NCBI GenBank assembly: GCA_020137815.1
Contig: CM035352.1
Span: 4,526,001 to 4,590,000, forward strand
Origin: Hormiphora californensis
Taxonomy: Eukaryota > Animalia > Ctenophora
Direction of reading: 5' to 3'
DNA length: 64,000 bases
The notes below the pieces were generated by a model, which was not told where the DNA came from, ran no database searches, and worked only from the letters and a program-made list of their open reading frames with translations. This document shows, in pieces, positions 39,001 through 48,701 of the stretch (its first letter is position 1; the number at the start of each line of letters is the position of its first letter). The position numbers and the translations under genes are program-made.

Positions 39001-39949
39001 TAGGGAGAAAATTAGGATTTACTAAACAATAAAAGGGTATTATTATAGGGGAGTGAGTAACTTAGACTCTCTAAGATTAGAAGGGAATCGGAAGTGAATC
39101 CTAGTTTGCTATACGAGGTAATGATTCTACAACAGCTTACTGGTGTAATTCTTGTTGTACAGGGCGGTTACATCTATTGTGTTGTCGGTCGAATTGTAGT
39201 GATTTCTAACAGCATGTGACCACAGCAAGACCGAATCGTGGTAGTTTGCGGCATAGAATGGAACCTGTATAACGAATTGCTGTTAAAAGCAACTAGAGGA
39301 GATTAAATACGAGTAACTGGATAGTAAATAGGAAGGTGTAAATCAATTGTGAAAGCTATAACAACCCCCTTTTACTAATTGTTACCTCTCGTTTGTCTCC
39401 AAAGTCGTATTTAAAAGGTGGCAGTTTGGCCCTCTCCTTGACTTGATCAGCAAAGTTCTGGAACAGCTTGGTATCGACACCAGCAGTTACAATGAATGCA
39501 GACTGAAACAGAAACACGTTACTATGAATGCAGACTGAAACAGAAACACGTTACTATGAATGCAGACTGAAACAGAAACACGTGATCAATCATTACACAT
39601 GGAGGTAGCACACATTTCTATATAGTTATATGTAGTTCCAAAACACATTTGTTAAAATTAATAACCTTTTACATACTACTGTTAAGCTTATTATGTTCTA
39701 ACCTTCCCTTTACAGGGTCTAGCTAGACAATGTTTAGCCGTACCTGGAAGGCTTTCCTAGCATCTTCATCTCTGTTTTTCTGGCTCATATCATAAAACAG
39801 CTCATCGTCAGCGGCAGTCCAGTTGTAGAGGGGGAAGTAGTTGGTGGGTATGATAATAAACACATACTCGTTCCCCTGGGTCATGCCCGCATCATAGGCA
39901 GCCAGCATGAGATCCCGTACCATCCGCTGTCCACCAAACAACAACACAA
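27055..39949 (-). CDS. Receptor (membrane) guanylyl cyclase, NPR-like: shared constant exons (~20) encoding the second half of the ectodomain, TM, kinase-homology and cyclase domains
   Basis: [160 protein letters not shown]. The GC-specific E and C residues are present. Confidence 0.95.
27352..27420. mobile_element. ~67-bp hairpin MITE, copy 1
   Basis: TSD gcagctggg; ttggtgacatagacacctgg...gtcaccaa. Confidence 0.85.
27607..27673. mobile_element. ~67-bp hairpin MITE, copy 2
   Basis: TSD atgaatcct. Confidence 0.9.
28618..28684. mobile_element. ~67-bp hairpin MITE, copy 3
   Basis: TSD cgtcgatgc; perfect 27-bp TIRs. Confidence 0.9.
29394..31436 (+). CDS. P4HA: Collagen prolyl 4-hydroxylase alpha subunit, nested antisense in a cyclase intron. 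Exons 29394-29532, 29706-29826, 30119-31436
   Basis: Signal peptide [49 protein letters not shown] (HxD), [22 protein letters not shown]. Confidence 0.9.
30026..30099. mobile_element. 74-bp deletion derivative of the 15637-16213 element
   Basis: ataacacag|ttggttacgaagtcacccc...ttcattaccaa|ataacacag (9-bp TSD). Confidence 0.85.
31861..32610. repeat. Compound tandem repeat: 32-bp minisatellite nested within 222/254-bp higher-order units
   Basis: gggttgacatggtaagggaggagagggggtttt units; ggccgaggtgaaaaatg recurs at 32004, 32226 and 32480. Confidence 0.9.
32600..33430 (-). CDS. Pim/PASK-like Ser/Thr kinase, intronless, nested on the same strand in a cyclase intron
   Basis: [58 protein letters not shown]. 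The ATG at 33430 gives MGISKS. Confidence 0.85.
   Translation of the reverse strand: MGISKSKATSYLLDQTHFETSYTLLSPLGEGGFGTIYTIRSNQTATEHVVKSIKRKGVPTERLQSTREKVPREVKITAGLQHPNIIKLLDFYTLRKNYLLILEYHAGWVDLFDFSAKKKRMEEGSSKRIMTQVLSTLSYLHTELSVAHLDIKPENILLNPADLSVKLLDFGAANYITPGKPLEVFEGTRQYAAPDILFRGSFDPIHADIWASGVTLYRLVVGDLPFHCPEDYYEILRFPSQISVYCQHVLCLMLCRQSELRPGKVDDVLRAPFFSL
33799..33970. mobile_element. Tc1/mariner-type MITE (CAGTCGGACCCCG family)
   Basis: cagtcggaccccgattt...aaatcggggttcgactg|ta. Confidence 0.85.
34665..34733. mobile_element. ~67-bp hairpin MITE, copy 4, inserted in a (gtaccct)n array
   Basis: TSD ccctgtacc. Confidence 0.85.
35780..36626 (+). CDS. Acidic hypothetical protein nested antisense in a cyclase intron; reading frame interrupted at ~36033-36105
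   Basis: [12 protein letters not shown]...Glu-rich ORF and a downstream same-frame ORF (predicted coiled coil, [10 protein letters not shown], Glu-rich tail); acceptor ctgcag 8 nt before the ATG. Confidence 0.6.
38010..38165. mobile_element. Tc1/mariner-type MITE (CAGTCGGACCCCG family)
   Basis: ta|cagtcggaccccgattt...aaatcggggtccgactg|ta. Confidence 0.9.
38762..38870. mobile_element. hAT-type MITE (109 bp, 8-bp TSD)
   Basis: cttgagca|caggaactgaccgaa...ttcggtcggttcctg|cttgagca. A degenerate inverted copy lies at ~31655-31735. Confidence 0.85.
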
Positions 39950-40074
39950 CTGCAATAAGAGAGAATGATTAGAATGTATGCTTAGTTGGTTCTAATTGGT
40001 ATAGGTAACTAGTATTTTAGGTATGGAGGAGATGAATGATCCCCATGGAAGTATGAAATGAACGTCCTGCATAC

Positions 40075-46724: not shown

Positions 46725-48701
46725 CTCGGCACATTTTCGGAACTTCGAACGTTAGGTACTCAGTTGCTTGGCTCATTTTATTATCCTCAGTGTAGTAAAC
46801 TTCATGATAAATCTTGTATTCCTCCTGAAAATGATGACCATATAAGAAACAGTTGTTATGTTGTTATGTGCTGAAGGACGCTGTGAAACAGGGCAAGGCA
46901 AAAGGCCAAAAGAACAGCTCTAGATCACTATCAGTTACTAAACAGCTTCTAAATAGGGGGAGGGGTTCAATTCACCGCTTTTTGGCATTTTTGGCTAACA
47001 AAATTAGAGAGGAGCGAGGAGAGTGGTTAAACCTGTCTGGCGCCGAGAATCAAATGGGGTATGGCGCCGCCATACAGGGTTAAACTGGTTTATATATGGC
47101 ATCGCACTGACAGATTGTAACTGCTGCTCCACCTGAGCTGAATGTAAAGATCTCATTGATAACACTCCATATTTCTGGCCCACCCTGTACATATTATCTA
47201 CCTGGATGGACAGAATGAGCTCATTCGCCAGATTTGCATTGTCCCCGACCTCCCCGAACACTTGGAGATGTGCAAACTCCCAGCGATAGTCCTTAAAAAG
47301 GGCTTCTAGGATTGGTAGTAGTCGGTCCTTTACTTCTAAATCAATATTGTTTGTCACCTGCAGGACCGGAAATAAAGGAGTAGGAGGGTTACTGACTGAC
47401 TGACTGACTGACTGACTGACTGACTGACTGACTGACTGACTGACTGACTGACTGACTGACTGACTGACTGACTGACTGACTGACTGACTGACCTGACTGA
47501 CTGACTGACTGACTGACTGACTGACTGACTGACTGACTGACTGACTGACTGACTGACTGACTGACTGACTGACTGACTGACTGACTGACTGACTGACTGA
47601 CTGACTGACTGACTGACTGACTGACTGACTGACTGACTCACTGACTCACTGACTCACTGACTGACTCACTGACTGACTCACTGACTGACTGACTCACTGA
47701 CTCACTGACTCACTCACTGACTGACTCACTCACTCACTCACTGACTCACTGAATGACTGAATGGCCGACTGGCTCACTGACCGAATGACTGACCTGTGAA
47801 TTGTGCTCGTAAGGATTCTCGTTGTCTCCGCTCACAGCAGCATCGTCAGCCGCAGTAGTTTTTCCAATACCGAACATACAATTAAACATGGATGGATAGC
47901 AGAAAGGTTTCACGAAGACCATGAAAAACATAGGACCAAGAATGAGGGTGACCTCTGATCTGGGTCGGTCAGGAGAGGGATACTTCCGGGTCACAAGCTC
48001 CCGTTCAACTTGGGACATCGTCTCAGCGATGGAACTGAAATCCTAAACAGAAGTTCGAATTGGCGAAGGTGGAAGACTTGTCTGGCATTACGCTGGCAGT
48101 GGAAGATTGGATCAGAGGCAGCGAAATCAATCAATAATCGAGTCTAAACTCAGCTAACTCGGGCTAACTCAAGCTAAACAGTCACTATTAACGAGTCTTG
48201 ATGGCAAACCTGAAAGACAAGTTTGTACGCCAGATCCTTTCCTGTCGCAGTCTTGAACTGTTCGTCTATCTGTTCCAGTGCTATCAAAGAGGCTGATCCA
48301 TGGAGCGCCATATCAGTGTTAAACATTATCGATATCGGGCTGGTATCAAAAAACAAGACCATGACCTGAAATCAGGGAGTTATTTGCCCCCATTATCATA
48401 CAATATACATTACTAAACACTTTTCTACAGAAAATAACCTTGCTAGAAGTAGAAATGGTTGTTAATTAACAACTTATTTACAGTTATAACGGTTGCTAAA
48501 AACTTGGTGACATATAGACACCTGGCGCGACCCCCGCACACTGTGTGTGAGCTCAATCTTGGTCGCGCACGGTGTCTATGTCAACAAGCTAAAAACCTGG
48601 TAGGGTGTGGTATAATCATCGCTCTGAACTTGTTCCAACCCATCGGTCGTTAGAACCAATGTGGTCCACAGTAGAACAGCACAGGGGCAGCTCCAGACCA
48701 T
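46725..48701 (-). CDS. Guanylyl cyclase distal alternative N-terminal module (255 aa). Exons 48597-48701, 48210-48365, 47794-48042, 47202-47357, 46725-46824
   Basis: MVWSCPCAVLLWTTLVLTTDG signal, four phase-0 GT-AG introns, HGSASLIALEQI, TLILGP, LEALFKDYRW. Ends ATG TGC CGA G|gtaaaa (phase 1). No other downstream partner exon was found before 40960/39949. Confidence 0.75.
47391..47793. repeat. (CTGA)n microsatellite filling almost an entire intron
   Basis: On the minus strand it begins at donor GTCAGT and continues as (CAGT)n. Confidence 0.95.
48504..48587. mobile_element. Hairpin MITE copy 5 (84-bp variant)
   Basis: TSD gctaaaaac, which includes the intron GT of distal cyclase exon 1. Confidence 0.85.

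Follow-up and report, generated by a model that had tools for sequence, protein, structure and literature searches.

The 64,000-nucleotide stretch analyzed here (the window) comes from the ctenophore Hormiphora californensis (contig CM035352.1 of GenBank assembly GCA_020137815.1, positions 4,526,001 to 4,590,000 of the forward strand). It contains a minus-strand gene whose product, judged by its domains, is a receptor guanylyl cyclase of the NPR/ANPR type. We propose that this locus probably makes two receptors, by joining alternative first modules, here called distal and proximal, to one shared signaling body. Each module has its own start codon and enters the common exon in the same phase. 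An earlier note on this DNA had proposed one locus with two in-frame N-terminal modules. That idea is upheld by the computed frames and by the occurrence of the proximal junction in the published protein Hc_Nitl, although the distal join appears in no read or transcript.

Architecture of the locus

All exon, donor, and acceptor coordinates of the earlier note were reproduced on the window sequence, and its two coding starts with in-frame, phase-1 joins to one acceptor, 39949, proved exact. The distal module comprises five exons that total 255 codons plus 1 nucleotide (nt), or 35 + 52 + 83 + 52 + 33 codons; its four internal introns are all GT-AG and phase 0, while its final donor is phase 1. 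The proximal module is a single exon of 285 codons plus 1 nt, also with a phase-1 donor. Beyond the common acceptor, the constant part runs through 20 exons to a stop at 27056, with 19 of 19 introns being GT-AG. Both spliced forms are in frame and free of stops, coding for 1145 amino acids (aa) from the distal start and 1175 aa from the proximal start. The features of the gene are as follows.

48787..48807, minus strand: strong acceptor, candidate spliced-leader or 5' untranslated region site (putative role), 86 nt upstream of the distal ATG with no intervening ATG
48597..48701, minus strand: distal exon D1, ATG and a signal-peptide-like N terminus (by eye), 35 aa
48210..48365, minus strand: distal exon D2, 52 aa, ASLIAL helix landmark, aligns with the proximal-family profile
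47794..48042, minus strand: distal exon D3, 83 aa, LILGP landmark, near-identical copy P0014
47202..47357, minus strand: distal exon D4, 52 aa, FKDYRW landmark
46725..46824, minus strand: distal exon D5, 33 aa plus 1 nt, phase-1 donor after Arg
46238..46326, minus strand: rival last exon that could end the distal block, adding 29 residues and a stop, acceptor score 8.2, not coding-like
40959..40979, minus strand: acceptor, candidate spliced-leader site (putative role), located 29 nt before the proximal ATG and sharing the frame of the distal donor
40075..40930, minus strand: proximal module P, signal peptide and ANF-receptor-like front half, 285 aa plus 1 nt, phase-1 donor after Ser-Arg
39744..39949, minus strand: first shared exon C1, acceptor 39949, ANF_receptor E value of 0.052 (below cut-off)
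38499..39502, minus strand: shared exons 2 to 5, remaining extracellular domain and juxtamembrane cysteine pair
38245..38335, minus strand: transmembrane exon, hydropathy peak 2.51
34066..37944, minus strand: shared exons 7 to 14, kinase-homology domain and coiled-coil linker
27056..31860, minus strand: shared exons 15 to 20, guanylyl cyclase domain, tail, and stop

Splice-site scores, for which the training donors ranged from 5.8 to 10.8, place the D5 donor (8.1) inside that range and the proximal donor (5.4) slightly below it. The acceptors scored 6.2 at 39949, 6.1 at 40959, 8.2 at 46326, and 11.3 at 48787..48807. Left unspliced, the proximal open reading frame (ORF) reads beyond its donor to a stop at 39992, for 312 aa in all.

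Repeats occur at several places in the locus. A 32-nt tandem repeat (3.1 copies, 39486-39583) triplicates the acceptor of shared exon 2, and only the last copy keeps the frame. The 5.8 kilobases (kb) separating the modules contain many long microsatellites, and a perfect 34-nt inverted repeat with a 13-nt spacer lies between both modules at 42029-42109. Hairpin-type elements with the same 13-nt spacer are also present at 27597-27683 and at 28618-28684, and by eye the first distal intron has a similar sequence.

Domains of the shared body and the outer region

Pfam scans, which were run exon by exon, located the guanylyl cyclase domain on two exons (Guanylate_cyc, E values of 1.8e-10 and 1.3e-06). 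The cyclase motifs are present, including the Glu and Cys positions, which we take to be the GTP-specifying residues. A kinase-homology domain lies between the membrane and the cyclase, as evidenced by its motifs and by single-exon matches to PK_Tyr_Ser-Thr (E values of 0.00094 and 0.035) that fall below the whole-protein cut-off. Each spliced form has one strong 19-residue hydropathy peak, corresponding to a single transmembrane helix.

The earlier note had placed both modules in the ANF-receptor ligand-binding domain. For the proximal form, a putative ANF-receptor-like outer domain is supported by Atlas, a method based on language-model features, which returned a score of 0.94, 172 shared features, and ANF_receptor clusters; for the distal module, the exon-level Pfam and Atlas scans gave the placing no hit. 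Pfam ANF_receptor misses the proximal module and the proximal family, and PDB sequence searches yielded nothing meaningful for the proximal module. AlphaFold models of this module had a predicted local distance difference test (pLDDT) score of 34 from the single sequence and 49 from a seq­uence alignment of 7 members. Foldseek found no match to the AlphaFold model at an E value of 0.001; among its weak rows, starting from 0.07, GABA-B and leucine-binding-protein folds recur, which is a lead only.

The proximal module is an old first exon

A full HMMER scan identified six relatives of the proximal module, with E values from 9e-51 to 1e-17 and 32 to 40% identity. Five of these relatives extend to the end of the module, where they finish in Ser-Arg and then Ser-Lys or Gly-Lys, the translation expected of read-through at a phase-1 GT donor, and the likeness ends there; the sixth stops early. 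P0007 reads across a short intron into the shared exon, and a search with the first shared exon returned one genomic read-through only. P0002, P0009, P0010, and P0007 have an additional intron within the first shared exon that is not in the window, and introns therefore come and go in this family. No full-length proximal-type protein turned up in a separate search limited to 500 to 2000 aa, and two metagenome scans gave 337 and 52 pattern matches, none of which was confirmed.

The spliced junction itself is found in Hc_Nitl, a protein from the published Hormiphora transcriptome, in which the proximal module continues into the shared exon through Arg-Ile, as predicted (PMC10073611, in the part of the supplement available). 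The N terminus of Hc_Nitl is that of the proximal module, signal peptide included.

Allelic contigs, compared over 39600-41250 only, provide additional evidence. In codon counts that leave out X8 differences and non-coding sites, 12 of the 14 changes in the proximal exon are silent, and both replacements lie among its first 20 residues; the first shared exon has five changes, all of them silent. The proximal exon is, therefore, under purifying selection, and it is a real, old first exon. One X1 allele shares three silent differences, at 40589-40594, with a diverged X8 contig, which reflects either retention of ancestral codons or chance.

Human NPR2 offers a parallel, as it has a single 667-bp first coding exon (PMC12394403, in the part available). 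This exon is phase 1, like the proximal exon. We take it to end at the matching Arg-Ile junction and, to our knowledge, NPR1 and NPR2 each have one first exon per gene. Because the proximal exon is old and NPR2 also starts with a single coding exon, the retrocopy origin suggested in the earlier note for the intronless module is unnecessary. The single exon and its donor-like end are conserved in relatives at 32 to 40% identity, and it is unlikely that a retrocopy would have reacquired a donor at the ancestral intron position.

The distal module looks functional

The distal block spans 766 nt with no stop and no frameshift. In a three-periodic coding model, it scored 0.068 bits/nt in its own frame versus -0.154 and -0.099 in the other frames, and the constant exons average 0.088 bits/nt. 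Seventy-five stop-free non-coding frames served as controls (mean, -0.031; standard deviation, 0.042), and none of 10,000 five-control sets reached the distal score. Exon D1 alone was not set apart from these controls, 14 of which reached its score. By these measures of its sequence, the distal module looks functional.

The relationship between the modules is a distant one. They are ~21% identical (44 of 207 aligned residues), in keeping with the earlier description of highly divergent modules that share collinear landmarks. Alignment of the distal block with the proximal family shows a weak, collinear resemblance (sum Z of 2.87, reached by 1 of 300 shuffles), and its match to the proximal-family profile is also weak (3.3 bits, 5 of 500 shuffles). 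Moreover, its landmarks, foremost those in exon D5, line up by eye with MlANPR2, a canonical receptor of Mnemiopsis. The distal block may thus be remotely related to the proximal family, as these weak likenesses suggest, and we infer that it would form an ANF-type lobe. Exon D3 had one database candidate, the near-identical copy P0014, which differs at 2 of 75 residues.

Contig ends hint at a second path into the shared exon

A search of sequencing runs with 39000-48900 listed no RNA run, a result that is neutral for the proposal. Run X8, whose RNA status is a guess, has no close copy of 39600-41250 and has two diverged contigs instead; X7 yielded nothing on this interval. Four loose ends of X8 contigs, read by eye, correspond to Hc_Nitl peptides. 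One contig starts exactly at the first base of the shared exon, as evidenced by the 77 nt predicted from Hc_Nitl lengths and the 77 nt seen. The proximal-type contig is unbroken to exactly 30 nt inside the shared exon (518 predicted, 518 seen). The X8 contigs were presumably assembled with 31-letter words, and in a graph of such words this pattern arises when two different upstream sequences lead into one exon. Their ends, which do not show transcript starts, hint at a second 5' path entering the shared exon. That the proximal-type contig passes the proximal donor without interruption speaks against a retained intron. Neither a second copy of any shared exon nor a third module was found within the 64-kb window.

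Evidence against a distal first module

Several results weigh against the proposal that the distal module heads the shared body. The distal join was found in no read, contig, or published protein, and the ctenophore cyclase tables searched in the available part of PMC10073611, where most entries are 5'-truncated, do not contain the distal junction motifs. Exon by exon, the distal sequence had no Pfam or Atlas hit; profile-profile comparison of the distal block with the proximal family by hhalign was null (probability of 0.03%); and a weak, word-based search with one exon, D3, did not reveal any relative of the distal block in other species. Closer to D5 than 39949 lie two other acceptors, 46326 and 40959, which score about as high or higher and give plausible products. 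Finally, X8 carries the gene of a relative and not that of the window, and its second path could be a distal-type exon, a spliced leader, or other sequence.

Alternative explanations

Four other explanations were weighed. First, the distal block might be a separate secreted protein, or a fragment of an old duplication, with its own terminal exon (e.g., 46326-46238), such that only the proximal module heads the cyclase. The strong acceptor at 46326 would add its 29-residue tail after a 398-nt intron of a size typical of the gene, the distal junction was not seen, and the proximal form is the only published one in the sources available in part. We nevertheless regard this explanation as unlikely. 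The tail is not coding-like, with 26 of 75 controls reaching its score, and the first AATAAA past the rival stop is ~700 nt downstream (45535). Moreover, the distal block ends exactly where the outer domain continues, presumably as half of a two-lobed fold, and a functionless fragment so diverged from its sister is not expected to remain intact.

Second, D5 could be spliced to 40959, producing one long tandem receptor with distal and proximal modules and with the proximal signal peptide inside the chain. This is a highly improbable outcome: although 40959 is in frame with the distal donor and 322 codons read through the proximal exon, such agreement of frame arises by chance one time in three, and the published ortholog has the proximal module, with a signal peptide, at its very start, as far as the available part of its source goes. 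Also, the leader trans-splicing found on Hormiphora reads explains an acceptor just ahead of an ATG (PMC8527503, in part), and the X8 contig pattern sets the second path at the shared exon itself.

Third, the distal block might come from another receptor gene through mis-assembly, or be a recently silenced module. The microsatellites between the modules would favor this, as would the shortness of the contigs, none of which links the modules (39600-41250 examined). A published Pleurobrachia model, seen in part, has a doubled cyclase domain without counterpart in the window, which indicates that assemblies of the locus differ. Against this, the window contains no N, DNA runs of two studies contain 0.59 to 0.78 of the words of 39000-48900, and the frame, phase, and terminal Arg of the distal block fit the shared acceptor exactly, so that we give this explanation very little weight.

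Finally, the view that the proximal exon is a nested intronless gene of its own (312 aa) or else a recent retrocopy, with the distal block as the sole true start, was rejected as scarcely credible: its ORF does continue to 39992, its donor score is low, and nested genes are common in Hormiphora (PMC8527503, in part), some of them in introns of this cyclase gene, yet the likeness of the relatives ends at the conserved donor-like end, the read-through tail is not coding-like, and the ortholog transcript, in the part available, is spliced at the proximal donor.

Comparison with known systems

Like NPR1 and NPR2 (GC-A and GC-B), the predicted receptors have a signal peptide, an outer domain that is ANF-type in the proximal form and may be so in the distal form, one membrane helix, a kinase-homology domain, and a cyclase. 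Both ctenophore modules have diverged beyond recognition by Pfam ANF_receptor or by PDB sequence searches. Closer relatives are the ctenophore "Nitl" cyclases Hc_Nitl, Pb_Nitl, Ca_Nitl, and Bea_Nitl, which are orthologs by inspection (PMC10073611, in part). The cyclase domain of the window is nearly identical, by eye, to that of the Pleurobrachia gene model Pb_Nitl, and the available parts of the "Nitl" entries contain no second N-terminal module. As NIT-domain or soluble guanylyl cyclases, the "Nitl" proteins are mislabeled: the kinase-homology domain is present and, in the exons covered, Pfam matched neither a NIT nor a heme-binding sensor domain. As far as the available source shows, they are membrane receptors, unlike Mnemiopsis ML02033a (by eye).

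In UGT1A and the clustered protocadherins, alternative N-terminal recognition units are spliced in one phase to common downstream exons, and these loci consist of many similar single-exon units. The earlier note drew an analogy to these systems, of which the splicing logic holds, but the anatomy does not: the window has two unlike units, ~21% identical and one with five exons, there is no tandem array, and the boundary cuts a single fold. If the distal join is real, the mechanism would be like that of UGT1A or protocadherin variable exons, yet the locus would not be such an array.

Receptor cyclase isoforms that differ in the outer domain include BdmGC-1 and BdmGC-1B of Bactrocera, which we understand to differ by a short insertion, whereas ~250 residues, including the signal peptide, would be replaced here. 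BdmGC-1B receives eclosion hormone (PMC6878697, in part). For guanylyl cyclases, no description of a layout with two front modules was found in the open-access literature.

Proposed mechanism

For the locus to make two receptors, long transcripts that begin upstream of 48701 would splice D5 to 39949, removing the proximal exon within a 6.8-kb intron. The proximal form would arise from an inner promoter or through the addition of a spliced leader at 40959. Both ATGs have an acceptor shortly upstream, and at least 56% of the Iso-Seq reads from Hormiphora carry a spliced leader (PMC8527503, in part). No spliced-leader motif was found within the window.

From structures of NPR-A and NPR-C, we take the swapped stretch to hold the peptide-binding cleft and contacts along with the outer dimer surface. 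The two forms are therefore predicted to bind different ligands while keeping the same cyclic GMP (cGMP) output. More tentatively, promoter choice or alternative spliced-leader trans-splicing might be an old ctenophore switch of the ligand-binding front half, located at the intron that ends vertebrate NPR exon 1, and might provide two ligand specificities and possibly mixed dimers; we consider this broader idea possible but doubtful.

Other genes in the window

Introns of the cyclase gene contain other genes. For instance, an intronless prolyl 4-hydroxylase alpha-like gene (30021-31436, plus strand; Pfam 2OG-FeII_Oxy_3 and P4Ha_N) is nested antisense in one intron, and an intronless Ser/Thr kinase gene (32600-33430, minus strand; Pkinase E value of 4e-52) is nested on the same strand in intron 34065-31861, followed by a ~250-nt tandem duplication around 31870-32640. 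Acidic ORFs of 186 aa and 102 aa (35733-36626, plus strand) lie antisense in intron 36656-35281 and are possibly a nested gene; the 186-aa ORF had no Pfam hit. Outside the cyclase gene, an intronless methyltransferase ORF (59591-60610, minus strand) apparently sits within another multi-exon minus-strand gene (about 54300-63900).

Implications for ctenophore signaling

Ctenophores are considered to rely on peptides for much of their signaling, and the list of ANPR-type cyclases from these animals is short, with three in Mnemiopsis. The domain evidence corrects the published "NIT-like soluble" label, as those cyclases are membrane receptors. A gene able to exchange its entire ligand-binding front, as would be the case here if both forms are made, would be tallied as one receptor, leaving the other uncounted. 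Such a gene would also be a natural matched pair, with the same output and a different sensor, that would be useful for finding ligands. Finally, it would suggest that the intron at the end of NPR exon 1 marks an old boundary between modules, one that has been reused in evolution.

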